57,958 bases of DNA from a virus (IMGVR_UViG_2778261152_000005:1-57958), one strand, 5' to 3'; positions 2,844-56,338 are shown, counted from the first letter of the stretch. Made by a program: numbers and translations. Notes: generated by a model not told the origin, from the letters alone.

Positions 2844-2873
2844 TTAATGGTGCCGATAATAGGAGTAAAACAC
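2844..2873 (-). repeat. att copy 1: 19-nt thrW 3'-end fragment (2848-2866) inside a 30-bp direct repeat (ptwF-like)
   Basis: ttaatggtgccgataataggagtaaaacac is identical to 15535-15564. tggtgccgataataggagt is the reverse complement of the tRNA-Thr(CGU) thrW 3' end …ACTCCTATTATCGGCACCA. Confidence 0.85.
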
Positions 2874-3008
2874 TCGATTAATCTCGTGTTAATGCCATCA
2901 CCTACGACCATTACTAATTGATTGAATCTTATAGAAAAATCATCATTTTCTATGCGTCACAATCAATTTTCACATTACAAACGCTCCGACACTTTAGCCG
3001 GAGATTTT

Positions 3009-4286
3009 ATGAGATACAAGCCTAACCAATACTTAATCTGTGATTCTTACGGTAACTACTATTTAAGGATAACGCTGCCTGTGTATATGCAGCCCTTTTT
3101 TGAAGGAAAAAGGACGTTTGTCAGAAGTCTACACACAAGTAATCTTCGTGTTGCACGTAGAAAGCGTGATCAGATTGCAGATGAATACCATTGCTTACGG
3201 GAGAGTGTCGCCCCTGTAAACAGCACAATAGAAAACACGCTGGAACTGTTACGCAGTAAGGCTAAATACGCCAAAACAGCTACCAGAATGCAAGATACAG
3301 CGTCTTCGTGTCCGTCATTGCTTAAAATTCTTGAAATCTACCTGACAATTAACAGCACGAAGAAGAAGCCAGCCACTTTAGCTAAGGCAAGAAAAGCGGT
3401 AGAGATGTTTCTCTCCTACCGTAAAAAGCCTGATATTGCATTGCAAGATGTAAGCCGCACCACTGTTACAGGCTGGATTGAACACATGCAAAAAACCCTT
3501 TCACAACAATCAATTGCAAATTATATCAGCCCAATGGCCCAGCTATGGGAATTAGCTTCATCACGTTACCACGATGCGCCAGAAAGGGCGCTCTCCCCCT
3601 GGCGAGGGCATAGGCTTGATGTGGCACAAAGTAGAGAGAGCTACGAGGCATTTTCTAACAAAGAGCTATTGCAGGTGTTGCAAGTATTTTCCGGTGATTC
3701 AGCAGAAAACAAAGAAATGATGGCTTTGTGTCTTATCGGTGCCTATACAGGTATGCGGATCAATGAGATAGCAAGTCTCACAATAGACGATGTGAAAGAG
3801 ATCGAAGGTGTGCTGTGTTTTGAAATCACACAGGGAAAGACGAAAGCAGCGGCACGTGTTGTGCCTGTACATAGCCTTATCACTCCGTTGGTGTTGTCGC
3901 TGCGTGAAAAGCCTCACAATGGCTTTTTGTTCTATCACGCCAGCATTACAGAGCGTGCTGATGGTAAACGTTCCACGTGGCATACGCAGAGATTTACAAG
4001 AGCTAAACGAAAGGCTTTAGGGGAAAAGGGAACAGAAAGGAAAGTGTTTCATTCTCTGAGACACGGAGTAGCACAGCTTCTTGATCGAAATCAAATTCCA
4101 GAAGACAGGATCGCCCTTCTCCTGGGCCATACACGCGGCAATACAGAAACATTCCGCACATATAGCAAGAATGCAGCTTCTCCAGTAGAGCTTAAAAAAT
4201 ATATTGAGCTTTTACGCTACCCTGAAATAGAGAAAGGCTTATCAATCAATAAAAAATCAAATTTAAGGCGTAAAACAACACTGTAG
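3009..4286 (+). CDS. tyrosine recombinase / phage integrase of element A
   Basis: The C-terminal catalytic signature is present: …GMRINEIASL… (Arg), HSLRHGVAQLL (HxxR), LLGHTRGN (His), FRTY (Tyr). An ATG at 3009 has a GGAG SD 5 nt upstream. The ORF track extends to a TTG at 2922. The gene sits next to att copy 1. Confidence 0.85.
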   Translation: MRYKPNQYLICDSYGNYYLRITLPVYMQPFFEGKRTFVRSLHTSNLRVARRKRDQIADEYHCLRESVAPVNSTIENTLELLRSKAKYAKTATRMQDTASSCPSLLKILEIYLTINSTKKKPATLAKARKAVEMFLSYRKKPDIALQDVSRTTVTGWIEHMQKTLSQQSIANYISPMAQLWELASSRYHDAPERALSPWRGHRLDVAQSRESYEAFSNKELLQVLQVFSGDSAENKEMMALCLIGAYTGMRINEIASLTIDDVKEIEGVLCFEITQGKTKAAARVVPVHSLITPLVLSLREKPHNGFLFYHASITERADGKRSTWHTQRFTRAKRKALGEKGTERKVFHSLRHGVAQLLDRNQIPEDRIALLLGHTRGNTETFRTYSKNAASPVELKKYIELLRYPEIEKGLSINKKSNLRRKTTL

Positions 4287-4293
4287 ACGTAAT

Positions 4294-4326
4294 AAAGAGG
4301 CTTCAATATAGACTGATGCCTCTTTT
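4294..4326. terminator. bidirectional rho-independent terminator between convergent genes
   Basis: The hairpin aaagaggc-N16-gcctcttt is flanked by A/T runs. It lies between the integrase stop (4286) and the stop of the 4367-5044 ORF. Confidence 0.6.
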
Positions 4327-4366
4327 ATGATTATCTCGTTACAGAGCGTTTCATAGGCGTTTAAGG

Positions 4367-5044
4367 CTATTGTTTAAATACTGGCGTTACAACGTCTTGC
4401 CCTGGGCTTTTTTGATTTTTCTGTTCTGTTGTATTTACCTGCATTTTAACCTGTCCCCCTACAGATTTATTTGGTGCTGTTTTTACCGCAATTGCGCTTG
4501 TAGTTGCTTTAGAGACAAGACGGATTTGCTCAAAATCAAGAGTAAACAATAGGCTTTCGCTTGCTTCTTCTGCGTAAGACATGCCAACTAACACAACGTT
4601 GTCATAATTTTTTAACTCAGTGACAAGTAGGAAAGGTTGGCGACTGTCCATCAACTGATTTAGGTATTCAAGCATAAGCATACGTCGATTGCCGTTAATT
4701 CCCGCATTCTTAATCATATCGGGATTGAGCTTCAATACGGTTTCAGAGATACGCCCTTGTAATGTGAACTTGTTATTCCGTATTTGAACATGATCACTAA
4801 CTTCTGATCCTGATTCGACGGCATAGCTTGTAACGTCTGCATTTCGGCTAACTTTCGTCGATTCCACGCTATCAAATGATAATGCCTGGTAGTCATTGTA
4901 AGCAGCATTTGCACCACTGCCGAGGTTAGAGGTAATGATCGCAAAGCCGTTACCCCCTTTAGTTGTTCTACCGTTGCTATCGTTGCTTGTGCTGTTGATT
5001 TTCGCCTCAGTCGGGCGACCAATGGTTAACGGACCCATTGCCAT
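4367..5044 (-). CDS. putative tail/baseplate (Dit-like) virion protein
   Basis: 225-aa ORF immediately downstream of the tape-measure-like gene. The motif …VTSYAVESGSEVSDHVQIRNNKFTLQGRISE… resembles the conserved core of small phage distal-tail/baseplate proteins. This rests on memory of the family only. Confidence 0.4.
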   Translation of the reverse strand: MAMGPLTIGRPTEAKINSTSNDSNGRTTKGGNGFAIITSNLGSGANAAYNDYQALSFDSVESTKVSRNADVTSYAVESGSEVSDHVQIRNNKFTLQGRISETVLKLNPDMIKNAGINGNRRMLMLEYLNQLMDSRQPFLLVTELKNYDNVVLVGMSYAEEASESLLFTLDFEQIRLVSKATTSAIAVKTAPNKSVGGQVKMQVNTTEQKNQKSPGQDVVTPVFKQ

Positions 5045-5091
5045 AATTTGTAATCCTTATTTAAGGGGGCTAAACCGCCCCACAGTGATGA

Positions 5092-6933
5092 TTAATAGGT
5101 TGACCCGCCTGACATAACACCCAGCGTTAATAGCTTGCTAAACTCAGCGGAAGATGCCTTTGATTTGAAGTCGATAAATTCGCTCAATCGTCCGGTGTCT
5201 GATTCGATAGTTAGCGGCACTTCTGCATTTACTTGTAATTCTGGATTGAAGTTAATAACAGGTGCAAAGGTGTGGGAAGGAGTCTTGATAGCTTGTTGTG
5301 CTGCACTCTGTTTCAGATTTGCAATGTTTTGTCCTTCGAGAGTGTATTGATTTACAGCCTGCGCCCCGCCTACCGTCTCTTCTGGCGTAAACCAGCCTTT
5401 AATAGTGTTAACCAGGGAATTGCTGTTATCTGGCTTAGTTGTTCCGGTGCCAGCGCCTTTATATTGGTTAGGAGTGAGATTAGAAAGATTCTGCTTCATT
5501 CCTTCGTTAGACAGTGGCGGTGCATCACCTAAATTCTTTTGAATAGCAGCCGTCTTCTCGTCGTTTTTCATCAGCCAGTTGATTGCTTTCATTACAGCGT
5601 TAACCAATCCGCCGATAGCCTCGCCTAATTTGGTAAACATTGGCAGCATTGCAACCATGCTCTTTTTAAACTCTTCAATCACTTTCGGATCAAGAGATTT
5701 CATAAAGCCATCAACAAAGGCGATCCCTTGTGAGTCAGAAAGCCCACTAAGTGCATTATTCAGTTCACGGAATTTAATAACGCTTTCCTGTTGTGCCTGC
5801 GTTACCCAGCGCCCTGATTCTCGTTGTTCTCGTGCTGATTGTTCCACTTCTTTAGCGGAGCGTGTCCAGTATTTAGAGGTGAGCATCAAATCATCAGCCA
5901 GATCTTCCAGACGACTACCGATTTGTGCATCTGAATAGCCTTTAGCTACCATTCCCTGAACTGCTTTACTAACCAGACCAGCCGGATTATCAGCAAAGTC
6001 TTTTAGATCCTTTTTAGTTAGGAATCCTTCATTCATTAAAGTATTGATGCCGCTATCGCCGCCCTTCCATTCTCCTTTACCAGTTTTCTTATCAACTACA
6101 TATTCAGCCTCATCATAAGATTTAGTAGCCTTCTCCCGTACATCTTTCATCTGATCGAGATACTTACGTTTACCTTGTTCGCCCATCATTGAATCAACGC
6201 CGTTTTTATAAGCCCATTGTTCAATATTGTTCATCTGGTTAACGTCTACACCGCCCAGCTTCGCACGGCTATACAATTCACCCAGCGTTTCAGCATTCGC
6301 AAAGCTGTTAGTAACAAATTCAGAGGCTTTGCTCATAGCCATATACGTAGCGCCAGCGCCTAAGCCACCCAGCATAACAGCCGCAGCACCGCCGCCAATA
6401 CTCCCGCTACCCTTAACAGGTGCATAGGCTTTAGCGTGAGCGTTACGATTGCCATTAATCTTACGTTGTTGCTGTTGTAGGCGTTTCATTTGGCTATTCA
6501 TACGTGCCAGACTAATAGCTCCTCTTTCATATTGGAGGGCAATTTCTCTAGCCTGTGCAATAGCTTTATATTGTTCCGCTACAGAAAGACGGTGCATTGC
6601 ACTAATGCTTGATCCAACGTCTAAAAGCTTTAATTCTGCCTTCTCTTTGCGTGCTGCCAGGGCTTTTTGTTCTCTTGCAACTACACGTTGAGCGGCTAAT
6701 TGTGCTTTAGCATTAGCTTTATCAGCCTGTGCTTGCTTTTTAGCAATATCGTCTACGTCTTTTTTTGCTTTAGCGGTTGATTGTTTATGTGTCTTAACAC
6801 GCAATTCTATATCTTTCACCGCCGCCATTTGTTTACGAAGTTTTTCTACTTCTGCTTTTGCTTTCTCTAATGATGGTCGGTTAACTTCGAAGGTGACAAC
6901 GTTCGAGAGGCGTGCCACGTTTAGCTCTAACAT
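5092..6933 (-). CDS. tape-measure-like protein
   Basis: 613 aa. It has an N-terminal Lys/Ala/Gln-rich coiled-coil region, a Gly-rich hydrophobic segment (GSIGGGAAAVMLGGLGAGATYMAM) and a long helical remainder. This composition is typical of phage tape measure proteins. Confidence 0.45.
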   Translation of the reverse strand: MLELNVARLSNVVTFEVNRPSLEKAKAEVEKLRKQMAAVKDIELRVKTHKQSTAKAKKDVDDIAKKQAQADKANAKAQLAAQRVVAREQKALAARKEKAELKLLDVGSSISAMHRLSVAEQYKAIAQAREIALQYERGAISLARMNSQMKRLQQQQRKINGNRNAHAKAYAPVKGSGSIGGGAAAVMLGGLGAGATYMAMSKASEFVTNSFANAETLGELYSRAKLGGVDVNQMNNIEQWAYKNGVDSMMGEQGKRKYLDQMKDVREKATKSYDEAEYVVDKKTGKGEWKGGDSGINTLMNEGFLTKKDLKDFADNPAGLVSKAVQGMVAKGYSDAQIGSRLEDLADDLMLTSKYWTRSAKEVEQSAREQRESGRWVTQAQQESVIKFRELNNALSGLSDSQGIAFVDGFMKSLDPKVIEEFKKSMVAMLPMFTKLGEAIGGLVNAVMKAINWLMKNDEKTAAIQKNLGDAPPLSNEGMKQNLSNLTPNQYKGAGTGTTKPDNSNSLVNTIKGWFTPEETVGGAQAVNQYTLEGQNIANLKQSAAQQAIKTPSHTFAPVINFNPELQVNAEVPLTIESDTGRLSEFIDFKSKASSAEFSKLLTLGVMSGGSTY

Positions 6934-6967
6934 GCTAATTGTTTCCCTGTATTATGATTGTTGTTTG

Positions 6968-7165
6968 TTATTGTTTTTTAGAGCAATAATATTGGATTGC
7001 TTCGAAAGTGCTACATCCAGTCTGAAAGACACGCTGACGCACATTATTTGCATCAATTGAAAGCATTCTGCATAAGGCACTGACATTGATTATTGAGTCA
7101 TCGCTAATAGCTGCCAGTTCTTTTACAGATTTAAGAATTAATGCCTGTGAATTTTCTGTATTCAT
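6968..7165 (-). CDS. hypothetical small protein
   Basis: 65-aa ORF in the same orientation, between the capsid-like and tape-measure-like genes. Confidence 0.4.
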   Translation of the reverse strand: MNTENSQALILKSVKELAAISDDSIINVSALCRMLSIDANNVRQRVFQTGCSTFEAIQYYCSKKQ

Positions 7166-7318
7166 TGGTTTTCTCTCACATATATATTTTTATTTGGGTT
7201 TGTAGACAGTAGAAAAACAAAAAGGGCAAAGAGATTCGTTACTGTATTTGCGCCTACAGGTTAGTTAATCCCTTTACCATTATTTTCCAGACGATGGGAA
7301 TCGTCTATTAATGCTTTA

Positions 7319-8350
7319 TTACGCAGCAGATCCGAAGATGATAGCTTGCGGAATGTTGTTTACTGGCAGATAAGATGTCTCAGTAACCACAGATGGGAAT
7401 TGGAATTCATCCTTGATTAGATATTGGTGATGCAACACGGCATCTTGACCTAACTCAGCATGACGCACACCAACGCCGCTATGAAGCTGGTAACACTGTG
7501 CCGCTTTATCCATTACCGGGACAATTGCGAAACCGTTCTCTCCGATGTGAGCAACAATCTCAGGAAACATTGACACATCAATAACAGTGATCCCACCAAT
7601 CTGGAAAGAGTCATAGGCTGGGTTAGAATCAACCATACGGGTAAACAGGGCCGTAGCACTCGCATCGCCTGCATATTTCACCATGTCACTGATCAGCGGG
7701 TTAGATGACAAACCATCAGCAGCAGCGCCAGCAGCAAAGATAATTACACCAGTTCGCTTTGCAGCAAGACCAGACCCCAGCTTTTCACTCTGTAAGCGCA
7801 CCGCTTTACGAATAGCAAGGAACGGGTTAACAGTAGTCGATGCAAAGTCGATAGCGGGTACCGTGGTTTTAGCCTGACCGTCGAGGAAGTCGAGATCACC
7901 TTGTCCGGCATATTCAGATTCAACTTTCAGTCCCAGCAGCGCGGTAATCAGATCCACTTCAACACGGTTTGCGTGTGAACGGTAATGAGCCTCAGAGAAA
8001 TCATTAACCGCTACCAGCATAGCATCAGAACGGTTTGGATATTGGCGGCTGTATTGTTCCAGGTCACGAGAAGTAACAGCGTTAATACTGCCGACGTGTT
8101 TCATCTGGAAAAGTTTGTTTGACCATTCCTGACGTTTAGAAGCGTTCCAGTTGCTTTGAGTGTAAGGCGAGGTTTCCCCGGCTACCTGCACAAACTGCTC
8201 AATCAGGTCGGTAAGAAGAATGCTGTTTTCTGTATGATATTGCACATCGAACAGATCGAGATTAGTAATCAGGGTATTAAGTGCATTCTCATAAGCAAAT
8301 GGAGTTACTACCGCAGTATTAACGCCAAAATATGTTGATAAATCATTCAT
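7319..8350 (-). CDS. putative major capsid protein (lambda gpE-size class)
   Basis: 343 aa, directly preceded by a ~127-aa gene. This matches the decoration-then-capsid order and sizes of lambda D/E. There is no other long ORF on either strand here. The assignment rests on size, order and general composition only. Confidence 0.45.
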   Translation of the reverse strand: MNDLSTYFGVNTAVVTPFAYENALNTLITNLDLFDVQYHTENSILLTDLIEQFVQVAGETSPYTQSNWNASKRQEWSNKLFQMKHVGSINAVTSRDLEQYSRQYPNRSDAMLVAVNDFSEAHYRSHANRVEVDLITALLGLKVESEYAGQGDLDFLDGQAKTTVPAIDFASTTVNPFLAIRKAVRLQSEKLGSGLAAKRTGVIIFAAGAAADGLSSNPLISDMVKYAGDASATALFTRMVDSNPAYDSFQIGGITVIDVSMFPEIVAHIGENGFAIVPVMDKAAQCYQLHSGVGVRHAELGQDAVLHHQYLIKDEFQFPSVVTETSYLPVNNIPQAIIFGSAA

Positions 8351-8364
8351 TATTATTTTCCTTG

Positions 8365-8748
8365 TTAAGTCGTAGGGATCGCAAGTTCTTCATAACCAGC
8401 AATTACAAAGCCGAGAGATTGCAGTTTTGCAATAACACTTGCCTTTTCCATGCTGTTAAATTCAATCCCATCTTCAGCCAGAATAACGAAAGTAGGATGT
8501 GCAACCACTACGCTTTCCTGTCCTTCATAAGCCGGTTCAACTACTACGTGAGCAATATCAGAAGCGGTTGTTGCTTTGGTGCCATCGGCTTTCAGCAAAG
8601 CCCCGACAATAAGATCGTCAGTGAGAGGTGAAGCCAGTTTGACGAGGCGATCTTGCAGCACTGGATCAGCAGCGTAAGCTACTACCTTACAGCGTGAACG
8701 GGAGTTATCCGCATTCACTGCTTTTAATTTTCCATATGGGTTAGCCAT
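8365..8748 (-). CDS. putative head decoration protein (gpD-like)
   Basis: 127-aa ORF ending 14 nt before the capsid-like gene. Size and position match head-decoration genes. The assignment is weak. Confidence 0.35.
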   Translation of the reverse strand: MANPYGKLKAVNADNSRSRCKVVAYAADPVLQDRLVKLASPLTDDLIVGALLKADGTKATTASDIAHVVVEPAYEGQESVVVAHPTFVILAEDGIEFNSMEKASVIAKLQSLGFVIAGYEELAIPTT

Positions 8749-8752
8749 AAGA

Positions 8753-8950
8753 TTATTTTCCTTTCAGTTGTTTAATTTTAGATTTAAGGGCATCAGCAAG
8801 ACTAACCGCATCAGCCGATTTAAATAATTGAGCAGTGGTAGAACGAAGACTTTCGGGAGTAACTCACAACAGTGCGGCAACCTTAATGAGGTTTTCATCA
8901 CTAACAATCATCGTTTCCCCGTCTTTGCTGATAATCATTTCTTGTTTCAT
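8753..8950 (-). pseudogene. 66-codon reading frame interrupted by one in-frame TGA (codon 29; tca at 8864-8866 on the + strand)
   Basis: MKQEMIISKDGETMIVSDENLIKVAALL*VTPESLRSTTAQLFKSADAVSLADALKSKIKQLKGK. The frame is unchanged across the TGA. It ends at a TAA 4 nt before the ATG of the decoration-like gene. Confidence 0.35.
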
Positions 8951-9945
8951 AAATAACGTTCCTGTTAGTGCCAGACAAATAAAAAGCCCCAATGCCGTAA
9001 GAGGTTAATTCTGACCAGCAAAGGGGCTTTAACGTGCGGGCAATTACATAATTGATAAGTTAAACTATAAGAGGATTAAACATATCAGCAAATACACTTT
9101 TTAAATATACTTGATGATATGCTTAAAGAGTGAATATCAGACCTTAGAAAGGAAGGCTCTTAGGAGTTTGCCACTGGAATCACTAAGATCTGATATTCTG
9201 GGTGCGGGGGGCTAACCGCTGCCTGTTTTTGCTGTGGATGCAACAAAGTAAGGCTGTAAGGAATCACTATTCCAATTCTCATCTACTCACAGATCAAATT
9301 TTAATAGGATTAACTACACCAACAGTAATCTACCGTTTCAGAAAATCGTTTTTACAACCAAAGCTTATAGATCCGCATTCTATAAAACCCGTTTTGCTAT
9401 CAATATTTCCAAAGGTTATTGCACAATTCTTAGCTAAACTCTCTCTGCTTGCGGCTAACGCTATGCAGATGATTGTTTTTGACAACAACTTAATAGATTA
9501 TTCTGTTACTAACTTCTGTCATTAAATAAGAGTTTAATGATGTTAGTAAATAGTTATAAAATATAACTATCAGTGTAAGGCTCTTTAATGTTTTCGGACA
9601 AAATAAGGAGCTTTAGGATAAGCATAGATGAAAAATAAGAGCGGGAAGGGCAAGGAGATAACACCTACCCACCTTTATCAAAATTAAGCACAATGCCTAA
9701 CAACATTCATCAACACAACGTAGAAACAATCAACAATCAAAGAGGGAGTTATGATTATTCTAAAACTTCTTGAGAGATGGAAGGTAATATTTGTTAGAGG
9801 TTAATGCCACTCAACCCTTGAGGCTATCACCTTCCATATGCAGGGATTTATGACAATAGAAGGATTAACGCCAACTAAAATCTTTTTATCTATCCCTAAA
9901 ATTATTATATAACAAAATCATTATAAATGCAAATGATTTTCATTA

Positions 9946-10257
9946 TCATTTAGAGAAAATAGCACTTTTTGCTAAATCATCTACTAATTGCTGAATCTCT
10001 TCACTTGTAGCCTTTAACGTGCGGGCGGTGTCTGTGATAGTTCGAGTGCACAGCTTGGCATCGTCCTCAGATAGCTGCTCTAAATCGCTCACCAGAGAGA
10101 TAAAATCGTCAAGGCTTACATTCACCTTCATTAAGCTAATTACGCATTGAGAGAGCGTGTAATCGCATAAATCTGAATAGGCTTGATTGATACGTGTCTG
10201 TAGGGTGATCATCCGATCCGAAAGAGTGTCCATAACTTCCAGAATGTTGTCTGTCAT
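9946..10257 (-). CDS. hypothetical helical protein
   Basis: 103-aa ORF. Its start overlaps the stop of the upstream ORF (10254-10257), which implies translational coupling. Confidence 0.5.
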   Translation of the reverse strand: MTDNILEVMDTLSDRMITLQTRINQAYSDLCDYTLSQCVISLMKVNVSLDDFISLVSDLEQLSEDDAKLCTRTITDTARTLKATSEEIQQLVDDLAKSAIFSK

Positions 10258-10484
10258 TGTGCAATCTCTCCTTGATCTGCTGATTCCATCTCTTGCTGAA
10301 TCTGTTTATCCTTGTTTAGTGCAATCTGTAGTGGTATACGATAGGTTGCAATGTCATCCAGCACATCATCAAGCAAGGCAAAATCATTTTCTTCTTTTGC
10401 TCGTTCAGCCAGTGAAATAAACACTTCTGCAAGTTGTTTTGCTTCTTTAAAAAATGTTGTTTCTAATAGTTGATAGTTAATCAT
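10254..10484 (-). CDS. hypothetical acidic helical protein
   Basis: 76-aa ORF coupled to 9946-10257. Confidence 0.5.
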   Translation of the reverse strand: MINYQLLETTFFKEAKQLAEVFISLAERAKEENDFALLDDVLDDIATYRIPLQIALNKDKQIQQEMESADQGEIAQ

Positions 10485-10542
10485 TATTTTTCCTTTTTCG
10501 AATATTTTTCATTGGGCGCTTATACATACGCCCGTCATTTTA

Positions 10543-10926
10543 TTAGTTAGAACGTTTGTTAGAAGCTAATGTATCTTCTAAATGAGCCATCAGATCGACT
10601 TCCGAAACACCACCTACACAATTATTGAAAGCGTTAAATCCCAAAAAATGATGATAGGAGCTAAACCCTAAAAGCTGCCAACGTTTCAGAGTGCCATCAG
10701 AAATGATAGTTTGTTTTCTTGTTTTTGGGCGAAAGTAAACGCCTGGCATTGATTTGATTATTTCTTGTTCTTCATAGCTTAATTCAGGGGATTCTGTTTC
10801 AAGAATAAATATTATCTCTTCCCCTGGAATTTCGTTATTGGTGTGTGTCGGTGGACGTTGTCTTGTTGAATTGAAGTTACTGTTTTTTTCAATACGTTTT
10901 AAGTTGTTCTTTTTCTTTCTTCCCAT
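10543..10926 (-). CDS. hypothetical protein with basic N-terminus
   Basis: 127-aa ORF (MGRKKKNNLKRIEK…) in the same orientation as the Rep-like operon. Confidence 0.45.
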   Translation of the reverse strand: MGRKKKNNLKRIEKNSNFNSTRQRPPTHTNNEIPGEEIIFILETESPELSYEEQEIIKSMPGVYFRPKTRKQTIISDGTLKRWQLLGFSSYHHFLGFNAFNNCVGGVSEVDLMAHLEDTLASNKRSN

Positions 10927-11061
10927 TTTCCCTCTTTTTATGTGGATTATAAAAACTTGATGCCATTGTTACAATGAATATCGCCATAAATGCATTTGCC
11001 ATATGTATTGCCCGATCTGTTGTTATTGATTGTTTGTGATGTTATAAATCATTTATTCTCC

Positions 11062-11631
11062 TTAGAATGGTATTGAATCGTATATTTCACTTTTTTCTCT
11101 TAGAGATATTATCAGATCGTGAAAAGCCTGTTTCTCAAGATAGATATTCTTTGAATCTAATGCTCGTTTTACAAAATCTTCTGTTTCTTCGTGCGGTGGT
11201 TTCTTCTTATCAAGGGAAAGAAGCCAAGTAAAAATTTCGGGCCGTTCAGGGAACTCAGGCTCTTGTGTTTCTTCTTCAACGATGATTTCGGAAACATTCA
11301 ATATTTCATTAGATTCGTCTTCTTTCTCAGAAGGATCAGGTAGTGATGATTCTCCTTTTGGAATATCAAGCACTCGATAAAGGTTAGAGCTTCCTGGTCG
11401 TGCATCTTTTATAATTAATCCCATTTCGAGCAATTTCTTAACCCTTTCTTCTGCTGCTCTTGGTGTTATGCCAAAAACATCGCCTATCTTAGCGTAAGAG
11501 GGAAATGCACGATCAAACCCTCTCAAATAGCAGTAAAGGTTTTTAGCACTATCTGTAAATTTATGCCCGTTTACTTGGCTTATTTTTAGAATCCACATAG
11601 GAACTTTTACAAATTGTTCTTCATTAATCAT
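11062..11631 (-). CDS. winged-helix DNA-binding protein, putative replication initiator of element A
   Basis: MINEEQFVKVPMWILK…AKNLYCYLRGFDRAFPSYAKIGDVFGITPRAAEERVKKLLEMGLII is a wHTH of the phage/plasmid Rep/O N-terminal type. It lies downstream of a sigma70 promoter and close to five 22-23-bp iterons. The start is taken at the Met at 11631; the track ORF extends to 11655. Confidence 0.5.
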   Translation of the reverse strand: MINEEQFVKVPMWILKISQVNGHKFTDSAKNLYCYLRGFDRAFPSYAKIGDVFGITPRAAEERVKKLLEMGLIIKDARPGSSNLYRVLDIPKGESSLPDPSEKEDESNEILNVSEIIVEEETQEPEFPERPEIFTWLLSLDKKKPPHEETEDFVKRALDSKNIYLEKQAFHDLIISLREKSEIYDSIPF

Positions 11632-11684
11632 TAAAAATCTCCTTGATGTAATCACGCTCTACGGCGCTACTATGGTGATAAAAA

Positions 11685-11855
11685 TCACTTGCTTTTGTTT
11701 GAGAGTGTTTCAGCCTCTCTTTTCAACATATCAAGAATGTAATCTGTAACAGTGATACGTTTACTTCTGGCTTCTTTAAACAACACCTGAAATACTTCAT
11801 CAGGAATATGAAAGCAAGTGCGTGGTTGTCTTTTCTTTTCTGTAGTTTCGCTCAT
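11685..11855 (-). CDS. ribbon-helix-helix (CopG/Arc-like) protein
   Basis: 56-aa ORF not in the track: MSETTEKKRQPRTCFHIPDEVFQVLFKEARSKRITVTDYILDMLKREAETLSNKSK. It shows the basic strand-helix-helix pattern and has a ggagaaggag SD upstream. Confidence 0.55.
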   Translation of the reverse strand: MSETTEKKRQPRTCFHIPDEVFQVLFKEARSKRITVTDYILDMLKREAETLSNKSK

Positions 11856-11876
11856 AGTTTTCTCCTTCTCCTGTTA

Positions 11877-12053
11877 TTATTCTTTCTCTGCCTTACGCAG
11901 TTCATCAATAATTTTTAGTGCATCGTCAAAGCATTTTTCACGCTCTGGATAACCACAGCGTCGCGCTGTGTTCCTGTTCATCCTTACTTTAAAACGATTA
12001 ATCTCACCACGTTTCCAGGCTTCAACTACATCTTGAGAAGTGAAATACTTCAC
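11877..12053 (-). CDS. hypothetical small protein, first gene of the Rep operon
   Basis: 58-aa ORF with a GTG start and an aggagg SD 7 nt upstream (VKYFTSQDVVEAWKRGEINRFKVRMNRNTARRCGYPEREKCFDDALKIIDELRKAEKE). It is too short to appear in the track. Confidence 0.45.
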   Translation of the reverse strand: MKYFTSQDVVEAWKRGEINRFKVRMNRNTARRCGYPEREKCFDDALKIIDELRKAEKE

Positions 12054-12169
12054 TAATTAACCTCCTATTCTATTTGGTTAAAAGAAAAAACACCTTGCAA
12101 GCCTGACGGCTTCAAAGTGCATTGATTTTAATTATTTAGAGGATGGGAATGTTTTCCTGTCCTAATATT

Positions 12170-12198
12170 ACTTTACCACGACTAAAGGCTTTTGTCAA
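12170..12198 (-). promoter_or_regulatory. sigma70-type promoter of the Rep operon
   Basis: The minus strand reads TTGACA-17 nt-TAAAGT. The -35 is flanked by the inverted repeat cgacta…tagtcg, a possible operator. Confidence 0.5.
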
Positions 12199-12491
12199 CC
12201 CGTAGTCGTAAAAATATTGATCTTTTTCAGTAAGTTATGATATTGCTTAACAATTCGTGCTCTTTTTCTTCCTTATTGTCTAAAACGCTCTAAAACGCCC
12301 TCTGACGAGGTTTTGATAAATACAATAATTCCCTTATGTAGAGGCTGTTTAGCTCGCCAGAGGCTTGATTTAAGCGGTAGAATCTCATCTACTACCTAAC
12401 ATCTTTAAACCATATTTTTCTTTTTTGTCTGTTTGATGGTTGATCTATAGTTATGCGTTAGCATCCCCAAAGGGGTAACGCTACTCTAATT

Positions 12492-12865
12492 GCATTCGCC
12501 AGAACATTGCACAAGAAATTTATTTTAGATGATTGATGATCGTTAGATTGGCGTAAGCCTCATCAATGGAACTATTGAAGCGCACAGCGCATAGACACTA
12601 ACAACCATTCGCTTACGCTCAGGTTATTGCACAAGTAAATTTCAATCGTTAGATGGTAGTTAGTTAATTATCGTTCTGCGCACAGCGCAAGACTATTTAG
12701 CCTTACGCAAGCCGTAGGCTATTTGCACATAGTAGATTACATATTCGTTGTGAGCGGCATTAGCGAACATAGATCTACTAACTAACATCAACAAACAAAA
12801 ACTATGTGTTATGACAAGCAGTCTAACGACTAACACTCTAACTTGTGCAAGGTTCTGGCGAATGC
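12492..12865. repeat. pair of 24-bp inverted repeats (23/24 match) bracketing a 326-bp internally repetitive segment
   Basis: gcattcgccagaacattgcacaag (12492-12515) matches the reverse complement of cttgtgcaaggttctggcgaatgc (12842-12865). Inside are further ttgcaca(a/t)ag copies at 12627 and 12723. The hairpin motif gcgcacagcgca recurs at 12580 and 12678, about 98 bp apart. Confidence 0.75.
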
Positions 12866-12982
12866 CAATAGATTAAGGGATAGTCAAGGACTCCCCTAAC
12901 GGGTATCCCTATAATTATTCTTTAAAGATAAAAGAATTTATAAAAGATAATTTAATTGTAGTTTTATAGTTGATCTAATAGG

Positions 12983-13119
12983 TAACAAAATTCTGTAGGG
13001 GTGGCTAACAGTTTTCTGTGGGGGTGTCTAACATAATTCTGTTAGGGTTGGGGTAACAGTTTTCTGTTAGGGTGCATATTTCTTTAAAAGTTAAGGATAA
13101 CAGAATTCTGTGGGGGTAG
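12983..13119 (+). repeat. five direct iterons, putative replication origin of element A
   Basis: taacaaaattctgtaggggt, taacagttttctgtgggggt, taacataattctgttagggt, taacagttttctgttagggt and taacagaattctgtgggggt start at 12983, 13006, 13029, 13054 and 13098. The first four are spaced 23-25 bp apart, with a 44-bp gap before the last. Confidence 0.7.
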
Positions 13120-13523
13120 TTCACAGTGACCTACCGTTATTACCGATGTGTAATATCGTTACATCCATTTATCACATAACATCTGTGCAATGATCTTCTT
13201 ATAAGTTGTAAAAGTGTTTCTTGCTATCAAAAATTAAACATCTAAAACAGGCTTAAATTCAAGATTAATTGATGATTAATCCCTGTGTAATTCCATACTA
13301 AAAAATTTAATGAAAAGTAGCTTAAAAGAGCAATGTTAGCTTTCTTCACTTTTACATCACTTTCGCAAAGCCTTGTGTAATGCGGCTTACAGAGCACTAT
13401 CAGAAATTGTTGATTAAAAATCAATCTATTATCTGTCGAACAAGTTTTCTTTAATGCAACAAAAAATTAATTTTTTCAAAATAAACACGCTATTTAATAG
13501 CTTGCTAATTTTACCAAAACATA

Positions 13524-13650
13524 ACTACACGATTCTCATGCAAGACGTGTAGTGATAAAGCAGGCTAAATCACCACACTAAAAACCTTCGAATTTCGTAG
13601 TGAAAAAAGTCCTTTACACACCTAATCAACACGATCAATAATCACTACAC
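13524..13650. promoter_or_regulatory. res-like recombinase binding sites upstream of the serine recombinase gene
   Basis: The imperfect inverted pairs actacacg-N14-cgtgtagt (13524-13553) and tcaccacac-N17-cgtagtga (13570-13603), plus an extra half-site tcactacac (13642-13650), share the 9-mer TCAC(C/T)ACAC. They sit where Tn3/gamma-delta-type res sites lie relative to tnpR. Confidence 0.4.
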
Positions 13651-13671
13651 ACAAATCAACACAGAAGGAAA

Positions 13672-14229
13672 ATGAAAATGGCTAATATTGGATACATTAG
13701 GGTATCGACTGTCCAACAAAACACAGACCGTCAATTAGCTGGAGTAACTCTTGATAAAGTCTTTGAAGATAAAGCGTCAGGCAAGAATACCCAGCGCCCA
13801 CAGTTTGAGGCAATGATGAACTATGTGCGTGAAGGTGATGTTTTGCATGTTCACAGCATTGATCGACTTTGCCGTAATACAGCCGACCTACTGGCAACGG
13901 TTGAGCAATTAACAGAGCGCGGCGTGTCTGTGCATTTCCATAAAGAAGACTTTAAGACAGGGAAGAACTCTCCCGCAGGGAATATGATGCTCACAGTGCT
14001 TGCAGCAGTGGCACAAATGGAACGTGAAATGATGCTTGAGCGGCAACGTGAAGGGATCGCCGCAGCTAAGGCCGCTGGACGTATAGCAAAACGTGGTAAT
14101 GGAAAAGCAATTGATCGAGCGGGAATTGTTGCCGCTCTCGCGAATGGTGGATCAATTCGGAGCGTAGCAAAAGATTTCAGTGTCAGCACACAGACGGTGC
14201 AACGTATCAAGAAAGAGCAGGAAGCGTAA
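13672..14229 (+). CDS. small serine recombinase (resolvase/invertase family)
   Basis: 185 aa. The N-terminal catalytic motif IGYIRVSTVQQNTDRQ (Ser nucleophile) and a C-terminal HTH (SIRSVAKDFSVSTQTVQRIKK) are present. A ggaa SD lies upstream. Confidence 0.9.
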   Translation: MKMANIGYIRVSTVQQNTDRQLAGVTLDKVFEDKASGKNTQRPQFEAMMNYVREGDVLHVHSIDRLCRNTADLLATVEQLTERGVSVHFHKEDFKTGKNSPAGNMMLTVLAAVAQMEREMMLERQREGIAAAKAAGRIAKRGNGKAIDRAGIVAALANGGSIRSVAKDFSVSTQTVQRIKKEQEA

Positions 14230-14445
14230 TGCCTCCTGATATTTGAGAATTGTCGCTGCGTGGACCTGACGCCGCTGATCTTCGCGTTAAACATTGATCA
14301 CGTCTGCGCCGATTTCAGATAAAAAGGTAGCTATTAAGCAATACGTAACTTTTACAATTAGTGAAATTATCTAAAACACAAGTTATATAGATGAGAAAAT
14401 GAAACATTATCTTGAACAAATCAAACAAAACAACACATCATCTTG

Positions 14446-14474
14446 TTGACACCATGCAAAGTGAATAGTAAACT
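14446..14474 (+). promoter_or_regulatory. sigma70-type promoter
   Basis: TTGACA (14446-14451), a 17-nt spacer, then TAAACT (14469-14474). It lies about 80 nt upstream of the 52-aa membrane ORF. Confidence 0.5.
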
Positions 14475-14554
14475 ATTATATGTGAAAATTTGCATGTTGC
14501 GTGCAATAAAAAATAAATGATACTTTGCTATTGTTAAATCAATAGGGGGTATCT

Positions 14555-14713
14555 ATGCGCTTTATCTCATCCATTTTAAAAACCTGCAGAACCACAATTA
14601 CTTTAGCTGTAATTGTTACCATCATATACCTCATCTATTTTACCCCTCGAGATAAAATCGATTCACTAGCGATCATCGTTCATGCAATGGCTACATTAAC
14701 TAAAAAACTTTAA
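14555..14713 (+). CDS. small hydrophobic membrane peptide (52 aa)
   Basis: MRFISSILKTCRTTITLAVIVTIIYLIYFTPRDKIDSLAIIVHAMATLTKKL. It has a gggggt SD-like sequence upstream, one clear TM helix, its own promoter, and a terminator directly downstream. It is not in the track because it is under 60 aa. Confidence 0.45.
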   Translation: MRFISSILKTCRTTITLAVIVTIIYLIYFTPRDKIDSLAIIVHAMATLTKKL

Positions 14714-14726
14714 TAATTTCACTATC

Positions 14727-14770
14727 AGGCGCATAAACACATCTTTGATCGCTGGATGTGTTATGCGCCT
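14727..14770. terminator. bidirectional stem-loop terminator
   Basis: aggcgcataaacacatc-N11-gatgtgttatgcgcct forms a near-perfect 16-bp stem. It lies between two convergent small ORFs. Confidence 0.65.
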
Positions 14771-14779
14771 ACTGGTGAT

Positions 14780-14932
14780 TCAATCCTTAAGCCATTTCAA
14801 CTCACTAAGGAGTTTTCTTTCTTCGTTCTCTCGCTGTTTACGCTCTAGCCAGGCTTTTCCCTCTGGAGTAGACAGGAACTTACGAGCGTGAATCTTGCGG
14901 TTATTACGTTTGATAGCTGCAATGTTTTTCAT
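14780..14932 (-). CDS. small basic protein (50 aa)
   Basis: MKNIAAIKRNNRKIHARKFLSTPEGKAWLERKQRENEERKLLSELKWLKD. It is convergent with the membrane peptide. It is not in the track because it is under 60 aa. Confidence 0.35.
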   Translation of the reverse strand: MKNIAAIKRNNRKIHARKFLSTPEGKAWLERKQRENEERKLLSELKWLKD

Positions 14933-15534
14933 CGTGTTGCCTCTGTATTCATATGAAAATGAACAAGTTACATACTACACAGGGAGACTACGCATAAAAC
15001 ACAATACAAGTAAAGATACATTTTCAAGACAATAGGAGCCATAAAGCGCCTTTGATGGTTATACCAAAAAATAAGCGCCGTAGGCGTATCCACTAAAAGG
15101 GCTTTTTCACAAAAGCTATGAAGTCTTAGCAGTTCTTCTCTTATCAGGCACCCGTTGTACTCCGGTGGACGAAACCGTGCTAGAGCTTGATTCTTTCCCG
15201 ATCAAGTTAGGTTTTGAAGAGGTGGGCTTTAATCCACTATTGCACTTAAAACTCTTCCCATCATTTAGCCTGTTTATCCTCTGCAACGTCATCTCGACGT
15301 GTAGCATCATTGGACACCGCGCCAGGTGTGGAACATCTTGCTAAGAGTTTTGGTAGAAGGTTTAGAGACGGTGGCACGTCTTCCAGCTTCAAAGGAACTT
15401 GTTACGAGGTTGAGCCTGGGAACTACTCGCCCATACGTGTTACACTACCAAAGCCCATAACAACGTATAGGCGTTTGTAATTGATAACAGAAGATACAAT
15501 TTCTTAGAGAAGTTAAGCTAAGTTATTGATTTTC

Positions 15535-15564
15535 TTAATGGTGCCGATAATAGGAGTAAAACAC
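15535..15564 (-). repeat. att copy 2: the same 30-bp repeat with the 19-nt thrW 3' fragment; junction of element A and prophage B
   Basis: Identical to 2844-2873. The similarity continues leftward, with a 2-nt indel, as ttgatttt(ct)taatgg. Confidence 0.85.
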
Positions 15565-17051: not shown

Positions 17052-18041
17052 ATGAACCGTATTGGCTGGATCTCATTAACTAGAGTAATAGCAGTAACAT
17101 TTATCGTAATGCTGCATTCTGCCTCATTCTATTTCAATAATTTTGATATTGGTGTTTTTGGCTGGGAAGTTGGGAATCTTGGTAATGCGGTTAGTAGATG
17201 GGGGGTTCCAGTTTTCATTATGCTATCAGGGGCTTTATTACTAAATAATAACAATTCGAATGACTACGCCTCTTTTTACAAACGCAGGCTCTCTAAGATA
17301 CTTATACCACTTATTTTCTGGTCTATCTTTTATTCTGCGATATGGCTTTTCCAGAATAAAGGTGACGCCACTATTTACGAAGCTTTAATAAATATTATAA
17401 GTGGACATCCGTTCTATCATATGTGGTTTATGTATATGATTCTTGGACTATACGCATTTACACCTTTGTTCAGGAAAATTGCATCTGTAATAGAAGATAA
17501 AGAAGCAACTTACTTAATCACCACTGTATTTATGCTTTCTGCCGTATGGATAAGTAATAAATACATAGCTGATGCTCATGATCCATTGTGGTTTTTCTGG
17601 TTCATTCAATACATTCCGTATTATTTTGCGGGGTATTATATTTCAAAATCATCTAGAAACATAAAGCCGACTCTTCTATTAATTGTAACGATTATAACCG
17701 TAGCAGCCACTTTTATAGCCACACATTACGCCTCGGTACAGTTTGGTAAGACTCAATACTTCTACGAACCGTTATCCCCTTTCATTATTATAATGTCATT
17801 GTGTGTATTTTGTTTATTCAAAAGGTGGAATTCAGGATTCTCCGACTCTCTCGCAAATTTAAGTTTAGGTGTTTATTTAATTCACCCTTTCTTTTTGCTG
17901 GCCTTCTTTAAGGTGTTTAAGGGGTTTGCAATGTCGTGGCCTCTTATGGGTTTTATTTGTGCGTGGATTATTTGCACAGTACTGTCTTTTGCTTCGACCT
18001 TCATTATCAAAAAAGTTAAATATTTAAATGTGATAGTGTAG
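17052..18041 (+). CDS. acyltransferase-3 family integral membrane O-acetyltransferase (O-antigen modification moron)
   Basis: 329 aa and polytopic, with the typical start …ISLTRVIAVTFIVMLHS… and about ten TM segments. It is AT-rich and opposite in orientation to all neighbours. It is convergent with the tailspike gene. Confidence 0.8.
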   Translation: MNRIGWISLTRVIAVTFIVMLHSASFYFNNFDIGVFGWEVGNLGNAVSRWGVPVFIMLSGALLLNNNNSNDYASFYKRRLSKILIPLIFWSIFYSAIWLFQNKGDATIYEALINIISGHPFYHMWFMYMILGLYAFTPLFRKIASVIEDKEATYLITTVFMLSAVWISNKYIADAHDPLWFFWFIQYIPYYFAGYYISKSSRNIKPTLLLIVTIITVAATFIATHYASVQFGKTQYFYEPLSPFIIIMSLCVFCLFKRWNSGFSDSLANLSLGVYLIHPFFLLAFFKVFKGFAMSWPLMGFICAWIICTVLSFASTFIIKKVKYLNVIV

Positions 18042-49202: not shown

Positions 49203-49387
49203 CACCGGTTATCTCTGACACTGACCTGATTAACATCAAAGAGGTTGAGCGCTCTGTTGGCCTGAAAAAATCCAGCATTTATGAGCGCATCAGTAATAAC
49301 GAGTTTCCGAAGCCTAAGAAGCTCGGGAGCCGAACCTCCCGCTGGGTACGCGGCGAGGTCGAAGAGTGGAAAAAACAGTTTCTTTAA
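49199..49387 (+). CDS. AlpA-family HTH protein (excisionase/regulator)
   Basis: 62 aa: MTPVISDTDLINIKEVERSVGLKKSSIYERISNNEFPKPKKLGSRTSRWVRGEVEEWKKQ. An ATGA overlap joins it to the helicase stop. It is convergent with the integrase. Confidence 0.75.
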   Translation: MTPVISDTDLINIKEVERSVGLKKSSIYERISNNEFPKPKKLGSRTSRWVRGEVEEWKKQFL

Positions 49388-50556
49388 ATCAAACGAAGCT
49401 GGTCAATATAATCCGCATACCACTGCATCATTTCCCGACGCCCTTCCATATACAGGGCATGGTTATAAACCCCGCGTATATTGTTCTTGTCCACGTGGGC
49501 GATCTGGAGTTCAACCCAGTCAGAGTTGAATCCTTTATCGTTCAGGATAGTGCTGAACGTATGCCGGAAGCCATGCCCTACTACCCTCCCCTTATACCCC
49601 AGCGTGTGGATCATCCTGTTTATTGTGTTCTCGCTCATGACCTTTGACGGGTCATTCCTGCCGGGGAACATATTCACGTATCGACCTGTCAGCCCGTGCA
49701 GTTCTTTTAGCAAGACGACAAGCTGATCGGAAAGAGGTACCAGGTGCGGGCGGTCCATCTTCATAAATTCGGCGGGTATCTCCCACAGCCGATTATCGAA
49801 ATCTACCCATTCCCATTTTGAATGCCGCAGTTCGTAAGTACGCAGCCCCGCCAGCATCATGATCTGCAACCCCAGCCGGGGCAGCGGGCTCCCCTTGTAA
49901 CTCTCAAGCGCCGCGAGAAAATCAGGCAGTTCCTCCGCCGTCAGGAACGGGAAGGACTCTCCTTTATGCCCGGTCATTGCGCTATTCAGTTCGCTGACGG
50001 GGTTATACTTCGCGCGCCCAGTCGCAACTGCATAGCTGAATACTTCACCGCACCACCGGCGCGTTTTGGCTGCTTTCTCGGTTGCGCCGCGATTCTCAAT
50101 TTTGCGCAGTGCCCTCAGCATCTGGACAGGCTCGATTTCAGCAACTGGCAGCTTACCCACCGCTGGGAAAATATCTTTGTTGAATGCTTCGAGAATGTCA
50201 GAGGCATAGCCAGGCGACCAGCGCGGCTTCTTGAATTCATGCCATTCTATCGCGATCTCTTTTAACGTGATCGTCTTTACTGCCGCAGCTGCGGCATGGC
50301 TTTTGACTTTTACCGGGTCAACACCTGCCGCAACGTTACGCCGGGCCTCGTCGCGTTTTTCGCGAGCGGCCGCCAGCGAAACAGCCGGGTATACCCCGAG
50401 CGCCAGCATCTTTTCTTTACCGGCGAAAGTATAGCGATAGCGCCAGTATTTTGCCCCGCTGGTTTTCACCAGCAGGATAAGCCCGTTGCCGTCTGGCAGC
50501 TTATAGTCTTTCTCGGCAGGCTTTGCCGTCTCGACCTGTCGCGCGTTTAGTTTCAT
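49384..50556 (-). CDS. P4-type tyrosine integrase of prophage B
   Basis: 390 aa from the ATG at 50556. It begins MKLNARQVETAKPAEKDYKLPDGNGLILLVKTSGAKYWRYRY…, the DUF4102-type arm-binding N-terminus. The catalytic signature is HGFRHTFST…QIAH…Y. The track ORF extends to 50646. Confidence 0.9.
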   Translation of the reverse strand: MKLNARQVETAKPAEKDYKLPDGNGLILLVKTSGAKYWRYRYTFAGKEKMLALGVYPAVSLAAAREKRDEARRNVAAGVDPVKVKSHAAAAAVKTITLKEIAIEWHEFKKPRWSPGYASDILEAFNKDIFPAVGKLPVAEIEPVQMLRALRKIENRGATEKAAKTRRWCGEVFSYAVATGRAKYNPVSELNSAMTGHKGESFPFLTAEELPDFLAALESYKGSPLPRLGLQIMMLAGLRTYELRHSKWEWVDFDNRLWEIPAEFMKMDRPHLVPLSDQLVVLLKELHGLTGRYVNMFPGRNDPSKVMSENTINRMIHTLGYKGRVVGHGFRHTFSTILNDKGFNSDWVELQIAHVDKNNIRGVYNHALYMEGRREMMQWYADYIDQLRLI

Positions 50557-50557
50557 A

Positions 50558-50601
50558 GGTACCCGCCTCAAACTCAGATACCCGATTATGTACCCGTTTT
50601 T
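50558..50601 (+). promoter_or_regulatory. arm-type integrase binding repeats (right arm) / int promoter region
   Basis: ggtacccgcc…gatacccgattatgtacccgttttt carries three (g/a)tacccg copies. It matches 15615-15638. Confidence 0.5.
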
Positions 50602-50709
50602 AATTTGGATTGCAACGGCAAAAGGTGGATTATGGCGGACAAACAAAACGCCTAATATGGCGAATTTAAAGGAAAAATGGAGGACTAAGGATGTTAGCGG
50701 ATTAAAAAA

Positions 50710-50755
50710 TGGTGCCGATAATAGGAGTCGAACCTACGACCTTCGCATTACGAAT
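50710..50755 (-). pseudogene. thrW: thrW tRNA-Thr(CGU) 3' fragment, 46 nt from the anticodon loop to CCA (att copy 3)
   Basis: tggtgccgataataggagtcgaacctacgaccttcgcattacgaat is the reverse complement of thrW from …ATTCGTAATG… to …GGCACCA. The match ends in the anticodon stem, and the D-arm and 5' acceptor are absent. Confidence 0.85.
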
Positions 50756-51149: not shown

Positions 51150-51204
51150 GGTAATGCTGCCAACTTACTGATTTAGTGTATGATGGTGATTTTAAGGTGC
51201 TTGC

Positions 51205-56257: not shown

Positions 56258-56338
56258 AATACAGTAAACTGTAGAAAAAGCCCATTAAACCTAATATAAT
56301 AATAAGTTACAGAATTATCTTTACTGAATAATAGATAT

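Follow-up and report, generated by a model that had tools for sequence, protein, structure and literature searches.

Organization of the integrated unit

The DNA analysed here, referred to as the window, is a viral stretch of 57,958 nucleotides (IMGVR_UViG_2778261152_000005:1-57958), and all coordinates count from its first letter. Its left flank matches Escherichia coli and the host is E. coli. Our subject is a discrete unit of 12.7 kb (2844-15564) and low guanine-cytosine (GC) content, which carries an integrase, a replicon and a short set of virion genes between the two copies of a perfect 30 bp direct repeat. An earlier note on this DNA had suggested that it might be a satellite supplying its own capsid, decoration and tail components, or else a deletion remnant of a siphovirus or an integrated phage-plasmid.

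The repeats (attL, 2844-2873; attR, 15535-15564) lie at the ends of the unit as that note had described; the window holds no third full copy and a match arose in none of 100 shuffled sequences. Each copy consists of TTAA, 19 nt from the 3' end of thrW and the heptamer AAAACAC. Read as its reverse complement, the 19-nt core (TGGTGCCGATAATAGGAGT) gives the 3' end of this tRNA-Thr gene. In E. coli EC195 the same element stands alone beside an intact thrW, with thrW-proA on one side and the pao genes on the other. In the window it is the first member of a tandem thrW array, and attR adjoins a T7-like prophage, not thrW. The GC content is 34-45% within the unit, compared with 59-61% in the first 2 kb of the left flank, which is 100% identical to E. 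coli paoC-paoD and the remnant of a LysR-type regulator gene. The listed open reading frames (ORFs) sum to about two thirds of the unit, leaving about one third non-coding. A tyrosine integrase gene (2922-4286, plus strand) lies next to attL. Its product matches Pfam Phage_integrase (3e-17) and comprises DUF6538, SAM-like and catalytic domains; a RefSeq homologue starts at the equivalent of position 3009 (425 aa).

The virion genes form a co-oriented block on the minus strand. In the cryo-electron microscopy study of phage phi92, gp123 is the cement protein, gp124 the major capsid protein (MCP), gp134 the tape measure protein (TMP) and gp135 the tube initiator (PMC13450770). The element carries counterparts of these as two adjacent phage gene pairs, cement-MCP and TMP-initiator, in phage order and with nothing from between. 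Both adjacencies are the same in the Phapecoctavirus phage Mt1B1_P17.

The tail genes are the more readily recognized. The Dit-like tail tube initiator (4367-5044, 225 aa) matches Pfam Dit_like (1.4e-27) and Phi92_gp135 in the PDB (4.9e-53), and is 53% identical to a protein of Mt1B1_P17 in a tblastn search. It had been described as tail or baseplate-like; it is a tail protein, and the phi92 match now assigns it as the tube initiator. The TMP (5092-6933, 613 aa) matches phrog_16051 (8e-31) and Phi92_gp134 (4.5e-21), and over 528 aa is 24% identical to the TMP of Mt1B1_P17. Immediately upstream of the TMP gene is a 65-aa ORF (6968-7165), conserved throughout the family described below, which by its position would fit a tail-assembly chaperone.

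The MCP (7319-8350, 343 aa) has the HK97 fold and is of the type found in lambda (gpE), PhiTE, ICP1 and phi92. In profile searches the window protein itself matches only phrog_29 (3e-5), and Phage_cap_E (PF03864) is matched by ten of its 14 relatives. All of the top 21 Foldseek matches to its structure model are HK97-fold phage capsid proteins, among them those of PhiTE (1.5e-8), ICP1 (coat protein, 1.8e-7), Bas63, Sf14 and lambda, and we treat them as supportive only because the mean predicted local distance difference test score (pLDDT) of the model is 51. The identity to Mt1B1_P17 is about 24% over half of the protein, a weak match which falls in the phage MCP gene; among 50,697 phage records we found no homologue closer than 25%.

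Directly upstream of the MCP gene, in the position of phi92 gp123, a 127-aa ORF (8365-8748) encodes a cement or decoration protein of gpD/SHP type. Sequence-only searches with this protein were negative, including that against Mt1B1_P17; the fold search alone gave matches. The AlphaFold2 model (pLDDT 73) matches the decoration proteins of Bas63, PhiTE and Sf14 with Foldseek values from 4e-6 (Bas63) to 1e-4, and also SHP of phage 21 and lambda gpD. The cement-protein family comprises 138 clusters, none of which bears a functional name; those with a named source are all enterobacterial. At the head of the block lies a 66-codon ORF (8753-8950) with an in-frame TGA at 8864-8866, the interruption that had been noticed before.

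Profile, PDB and fold matches thus support each virion assignment in the block, which the earlier note had made from size, order and composition. Pfam and PHROG profile scans of the unit found no terminase, portal, protease, sheath, tube or lysis gene, in agreement with the gene set first reported. A relationship to siphoviruses is not borne out: the relatives are contractile-tailed virulent myoviruses of the Stephanstirmvirinae.

The replicon lies beyond the virion block. Rep (11062-11631, minus strand, 189 aa) has an N-terminal winged helix-turn-helix (wHTH) origin-binding domain and matches replication-initiator PHROGs; its C-terminal domain is conserved between the Rep variants compared, and it has no helicase or primase domain. 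Two ORFs of 56 and 58 aa (11685-12053, minus strand), kept in Klebsiella and other relatives, head the Rep operon and are presumed to be regulators. A site resembling a sigma-70 promoter (12198-12170, minus strand; TTGACA-17-TAAAGT, TG-extended by an upstream TG), a consensus match only, precedes the 58-aa, 56-aa and Rep ORFs of this leftward operon. The operon proposed earlier therefore stands as to promoter-like site and wHTH Rep; the ribbon-helix-helix fold claimed for the 56-aa product was confirmed by no library. Five iterons of 23-24 nt (12980-13118), also seen before, are spaced by 23, 23, 25 and 44 nt and adjoin an AT-rich stretch; we presume this region to be oriV. A small serine recombinase of resolvase/invertase type (13672-14229, plus strand) matches Resolvase at 1e-38 and an invertase PHROG at 2e-62, and presumably resolves multimers. 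Klebsiella relatives have a small tyrosine recombinase in its position. No confirmation was found of the res-like sites that had been attributed to the serine recombinase; only a pair of 34-nt inverted repeats was seen.

Links to Phapecoctavirus

A distant DNA search with the non-coding right part of the unit found a segment (14233-14315, plus strand) that matches 65 genomes of about 145-161 kb, nearly all of them Phapecoctavirus. The alignment is 85 bp long including a 2-nt gap, with 81% identity and a perfect core of 25 nt. The segment begins four bases past the stop codon of the recombinase and is kept in both E. coli lineages of the element. The records of phages WPEC4 and Mt1B1_P17, which are independent, end in an exact direct terminal repeat of 328 bp. 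Since the segment straddles the inner boundary of this repeat, the right physical end of the phage (...TTCGCGTT) falls inside it, at window 14288|14289. In the related 147 kb coliphage BME3 a terminal repeat of 342 bp was determined by PhageTerm. The similarity and position of the segment make it a candidate packaging site, at which a terminase may recognize or cleave the DNA.

The second link concerns Rep. A stretch of 355 bp (11318-11672), covering the ribosome-binding site and N-terminal domain of Rep, is 99.2% identical to part of a gene of Mt1B1_P17. The product of that gene (QNJ49226; L002:3328-4314; 328 aa) has three parts: a pair of wHTH domains of Rep type in tandem, followed by an endonuclease-like domain at the C-terminus. 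Residues 1-104 do not differ from the Rep of EC195 (100% identity) and are 99% identical to that of the window; between the second wHTH domain and the Rep of the second E. coli lineage the identity is 75%. The C-terminal domain matches endonuclease phrog_681 (2.4e-18) and, weakly, Pfam MUG113 and T5orf172, as well as the T5-like 'homing endonucleases'. In Justusliebigvirus phages muut (muut_154, L011:1399-2397) and inny (inny_184, L012:1438-2541) the second domain and the nuclease are kept and the first domains differ. Full-length copies occur in only four distinct phages of the collection: Mt1B1_P17, muut, inny and BI-EHEC, where the gene (L013) is unannotated.

This architecture is that of Odn, the anti-PLE nuclease of phage ICP1, which binds and cuts PLE origins by means of a captured RepA domain. 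In both cases a satellite Rep DNA-binding domain is fused, in the helper, to a domain of homing-endonuclease type. The two differ in that QNJ49226 is 100% identical to a satellite Rep over 104 aa, compared with 42% for Odn, and has two Rep-type domains matching two satellite lineages; its nuclease activity is predicted. The phage gene is apparently aimed at the replication origin of the element. Between lineages of the element both the DNA-binding domain of Rep and the iterons have been exchanged, different iterons going with different DNA-binding domains, and such swapping is to be expected under pressure from origin-directed phage nucleases.

We considered whether these links might be incidental gene exchange, the element being a satellite of some other helper, such as the T7-like prophage next to it or a temperate myovirus not yet sampled. 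The tandem arrangement with a prophage that uses the same tRNA gene, and the low identity of the MCP to that of Phapecoctavirus, would agree with such a view. Against this, EC195 carries the element without the T7-like prophage, the latter has no homologues in common with the element and an unrelated integrase, the tail genes of the element are of contractile-tail type, and the terminus segment and the 99% identical Rep domain both lead to Stephanstirmvirinae. We judge another helper to be distinctly improbable.

A candidate satellite family

The unit is not peculiar to the window. Of 5426 complete E. coli genomes, 113 carry at least 80% of it and 764 carry parts. The DNA of the Rep domain occurs in 469 of the 5426 (about 9%), including sequence type 131, avian pathogenic and enterotoxigenic strains; strain Mt1B1 is not among the 60 listed of the 470 records that match this DNA. 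A second E. coli lineage, with an MCP 56% identical to that of the window, has the same gene order at a different site: recombinase, gap, Rep operon, gap, cement-MCP-small ORF-TMP-initiator, integrase. One of the sites at which this order is found is adjacent to ETT2. Klebsiella relatives (MCP 47% identical) lie at tRNA-Gly and lack the initiator, and a contig of 12390 bp (Logan ERR6294143, L037) holds a 12.36 kb unit bounded by the 3' end of a tRNA-Leu gene. Besides Klebsiella, the genera in which this gene order recurs are Citrobacter, Buttiauxella, Kosakonia, Phytobacter, Scandinavium and Raoultella. Capsid or cement homologues are present in Enterobacter and Cronobacter, and a more distant MCP homologue in Yersinia. 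The family is therefore found in the genus of E. coli and at least nine other enterobacterial genera, with Enterobacter and Cronobacter counted by their capsid or cement homologues. Between the two E. coli lineages the ratio of nonsynonymous to synonymous substitution rates (dN/dS) is 0.09-0.21 for all five structural ORFs. None of the related loci examined contains further phage genes, and the unit is never embedded in a full prophage.

These observations bear on the suggestion that the unit is a decayed prophage, that is, a deletion remnant which left four virion genes beside an unrelated integrative replicon. An incomplete virion set, a unit that is one-third non-coding and a small ORF interrupted in the window copy are what decay might leave behind. 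Yet the same minimal set recurs in the same order in lineages whose MCPs are only 41-56% identical, across at least ten genera and at att sites that differ; selection is purifying and no further phage gene fragments accompany the set; the related phages are virulent, of about 150 kb and, in the records inspected, devoid of an integrase; and a close MCP homologue is found in no phage among the 50,697 records. Because of the recurrent architecture at other sites and in other genera, the low dN/dS, the lack of extra phage genes and the virulence of the related phages, a deletion remnant is, as far as sequence comparison can tell, very unlikely. The earlier note had named two tests of its satellite proposal, the structural identity of the 343-, 127-, 613- and 225-aa proteins and the conservation of the whole unit elsewhere. 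The four are virion proteins by fold, profile and phi92 PDB matches, and the unit is conserved as a whole; both results favour a satellite over a remnant.

An integrated phage-plasmid, or an autonomous defective phage making its own particles, might be suspected from the iteron replicon and the recombinase of multimer-resolution type, and from a related 13.6 kb contig (L038) that has no integrase and identical 30-nt ends. The family members examined, however, have no portal, terminase, protease, sheath, tube, baseplate wedge, fibre or lysis genes, and four proteins cannot build particles. This alternative, also raised in the earlier note, finds no support and we regard it as scarcely credible.

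Our analysis favours a different reading, to which we assign a probability of roughly 70%: the element appears to be an integrative satellite of an undescribed family whose helpers are virulent Stephanstirmvirinae myoviruses, with Phapecoctavirus (phAPEC8-like) phages as the best candidates in E. coli. It is a discrete mobile unit with att repeats, a tyrosine integrase and several att sites, and its virion and packaging set is incomplete, as expected of satellites on both counts. With somewhat better than even confidence we further propose that this new family contributes its own shell, cement and tail core, that the helper gives portal, terminase, sheath, tube and baseplate, and that the two sides are engaged in an arms race involving capture of Rep. 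In the literature outside subscription-only sources we found no description of the element or of satellites of phi92-, phAPEC8- or rV5-type phages, nor its RefSeq protein accessions.

The life cycle that we envisage would begin with infection by the helper, upon which the integrase would excise the element and Rep would amplify it from the iterons. Since Rep has no helicase or primase domain, it probably recruits replication proteins of the host or helper. The small recombinase would then resolve multimers. MCP and cement protein would assemble on the portal and scaffold of the helper into a small shell sized for 12.7 kb, and the helper terminase would recognize and cut the mimicked boundary and package the element. 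The TMP and tube initiator would substitute for those of the helper within contractile tails that are otherwise helper-built. The earlier note had thought of tail-length remodelling, which is not an obvious purpose because the TMP is about as long as that of the helper (613 and 662 aa). Helper yield would fall, with the element acting also as a defence island, and QNJ49226, muut_154 and inny_184 would serve the phages as counter-measures by binding and cutting the origin of the element.

The main rival is a defence island which is not itself transmitted. The diverged virion proteins would then be dominant-negative decoys that poison the assembly of phAPEC8/phi92-like phages, and the replicon would serve only to raise gene dosage upon infection. 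Structural genes that are homologous to those of the phage yet diverged, the absence of portal and terminase, and the apparent counter-measure carried by phages against the replicon can all be read in this way, and interference by satellites with tail assembly is documented. A pure decoy, on the other hand, has no need of a copy of the phage terminal-repeat boundary; the integrase and intact att sites are kept across loci and genera, which implies horizontal spread; and the TMP of PLE is incorporated in transducing particles. We consider a decoy without transfer unlikely, while noting that defence and transfer are not exclusive.

Several points weigh against the satellite proposal. Excision, replication, packaging and transfer are deduced, the element being known from sequence alone, and no copy was found as virion DNA in the phage collection; the IMG/VR matches are prophage-style calls in longer contigs. 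The MCP is only about 24% identical to that of the presumed helper, which leaves its co-assembly with helper portal and scaffold in doubt; its structure model is also poor. No promoter is evident for the structural operon, whose 66-codon ORF, intact in EC195, is interrupted in the window copy. The ends of the phage terminal repeat were taken from database records as opposed to read-level data. A search of the element for the second terminal-repeat boundary gave chance-level matches only, and comparison of a Klebsiella relative with phage termini gave no match, other than that of its att tRNA-Gly. Finally, the nuclease assignment of QNJ49226 consists of profile matches and its target, the origin of the element, is putative.

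In the way it would work, the proposed satellite resembles the PLEs. Each is an integrative element (about 12-18 kb) living at the expense of a large virulent myovirus. Each combines a RepA-type initiator, with a modular and swappable N-terminal DNA-binding domain, and iterons; and the helpers of both carry the satellite Rep DNA-binding domain fused to a nuclease of T5orf172/GIY-YIG type. Chimeric tails were recently demonstrated for PLEs, whose TMP, chaperone and baseplate hub are their own products (20, 20 and 41% identical to the ICP1 counterparts), and are a direct precedent for the tails proposed here; likewise, the TMP and central baseplate protein of the element have low identity to those of the helper (24 and 53%, compared with 20 and 41% for PLE). 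The likeness is functional, with sequence homology not demonstrated. The PLE integrase is a large serine recombinase, and PLEs are confined to Vibrio cholerae with ICP1 as their helper, whereas the element has a tyrosine integrase and an E. coli host, and the helper clades differ accordingly. The central tail protein of the element is a tube initiator and that of PLE a hub, and the nuclease-like protein on the helper side here has two tandem Rep-type domains. MCP and cement protein are encoded by the element itself, whereas a PLE makes use of the coat of ICP1 together with the TcaP scaffold (PDB 8g1r, title). The PLE model of SatelliteFinder has 15 markers, including capR, repA, nixI and lidI (PMC10085698). 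No match in our general Pfam and PHROG scans, which are not PLE profiles, suggests any of these.

The other established satellites are further removed. cf-PICIs are, like the element, enterobacterial satellites of similar size with their own HK97-fold capsid protein. Besides AlpA and a primase-type replicase they possess a complete capsid-packaging set (portal, protease, connectors and small terminase); from their temperate helpers they borrow nothing but tails. In the element, genes for portal, protease, connectors and terS are all missing, whereas tail genes, for the TMP and tube initiator, are present. According to the abstract of the paper that describes them, cf-PICIs encode all of the proteins for their small capsids. 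PICIs are defined by an AlpA or Stl regulator, a primase-replicase, terS, rpp or ppi and the lack of structural genes; here we find a 189-aa wHTH Rep and structural genes. With P4 the element shares integration at tRNA genes in Enterobacteriaceae, a size of about 11-13 kb, a capsid-surface protein (Psu in P4, the gpD-like cement protein here) and perhaps use of the helper's packaging site, for which the element has a candidate. The helpers of P4 are, in contrast, temperate P2-like phages, and P4 encodes no shell or tail proteins. The marker set of SatelliteFinder for P4-like satellites is psu, delta, sid, the alpha primase and alpA; none of the ORFs of the element gave a Pfam or PHROG match to Sid, Psu, Delta, alpha-primase or AlpA. 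Tail genes are forbidden components in the PICI and cf-PICI models of SatelliteFinder (PMC10085698), and therefore these models are not expected to report the family.

Judged by its genes, then, the element would work like a PLE yet falls outside the definitions of cf-PICI, PICI and P4. Its distinctive feature is that it pairs a tail core with a shell and cement protein while lacking portal, protease and terminase. If the new-family reading holds, this would be the first known combination of an own capsid shell and cement with an own tail core.

If the proposal is correct, E. coli would have a tractable counterpart of the Vibrio PLE-ICP1 system with helpers available in collections (Mt1B1_P17, ESCO13, phAPEC8 and phi92 relatives). 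A capsid shell without a portal and a tail core without a tube would extend the known strategies of satellites, and with the chimeric phage proteins, origin-directed anti-satellite nucleases would have arisen independently for a second time, by convergent evolution. Phages of phAPEC8/phi92 type have been isolated and characterized as candidate agents for therapy and biocontrol. The element could be a hidden determinant of phage-therapy failure and of which phage variants succeed.

Remaining features and the thrW array

Three ORFs between the virion block and the Rep operon, all on the minus strand, have no assigned function: 103 aa (9946-10257), 76 aa (10254-10484) and 127 aa (10543-10926), the last being a core gene of the whole family. 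Near the integrase-distal end, a pair of minus-strand ORFs of 50 aa (14780-14932) and 64 aa (15116-15310) recurs at the equivalent end in Raoultella (L030) and Citrobacter (L024) relatives with 53-76% identity, and possibly includes a recombination directionality factor; the integrase of the Raoultella relative is 64% identical. A PADLOC scan of the small ORFs found no credible defence gene, and a search of the PDB gave nothing for the 65-aa and 127-aa ORFs. We also considered a late promoter shared with the phage. Phage structural-gene promoters look sigma-70-like and therefore provide no discriminating motif.

About 0.9 kb of non-coding DNA (12054-12967) separates the Rep-operon promoter from the iterons. 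It contains short repeats and stem-loops and is 74-92% conserved across E. coli lineages; in the part nearest the promoter, up to about 12229, identity to a Klebsiella relative is 67%. Here lie the 34-nt inverted repeats (12482-12515 and 12842-12875, 88% complementary), which flank 326 bp; the recombinase, for which DNA invertase is the best-scoring class, lies about 0.8 kb away. An invertible switch was rejected, as the 326 bp segment is collinear in 11 of 11 related loci.

Some relatives carry additional genes. The unit on contig L037 encodes a Dam-type methylase and a small tyrosine recombinase; the ends of this contig are the att repeat, the tRNA-Leu 3' end, and were discounted as proof of a circle. 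L038 (Logan ERR10766091, 13649 bp), a relative of the second lineage, also lacks the small recombinase. The place of the small Rep is taken by a helicase-like protein of 492 aa, and a superinfection-immunity gene (Imm_superinfect) follows the tube initiator; the contig may represent a variant that is circular or carries cargo. A 166 kb E. coli plasmid from chicken liver (NZ_CP126938.1) holds about two thirds of the element, broken by IS3-family elements.

To the left of attL, ORF 2313-2721 is the C-terminal remnant of the LysR-type regulator, of which the RefSeq equivalent is a pseudogene without the N-terminus; this suggests older rearrangements at the thrW integration hotspot. The last seven nucleotides of the repeat, AAAACAC (2867-2873 and 15558-15564), are not tRNA sequence. 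Since they come after the core both at attL, where EC195 agrees, and where the element meets the T7-like prophage, the arms of the element and of the prophage appear to start with the same 7 nt.

Directly after the element, about 15565-50709 is an apparently complete T7-like temperate prophage with genes for large terminase, internal virion proteins, tail proteins, MCP, portal, primase-helicase, DNA polymerase and lysozyme. It also carries an acyltransferase resembling O-antigen acetylases (17052-18041), a tail fibre that joins the T7 N-terminal domain to a NAGPA domain, and its own integrase (49384-50646). A tRNA scan found no intact tRNA gene in the window and an Rfam scan was likewise empty. 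A 46-nt fragment of thrW (50710-50755), extending from the 3' end to the anticodon loop, is a truncated copy, and the intact gene must lie outside the window. The remaining 50756-57958 is low-GC foreign DNA that includes an ORF of 1182 aa (phrog_18693) and looks like a third integrated element of the array.

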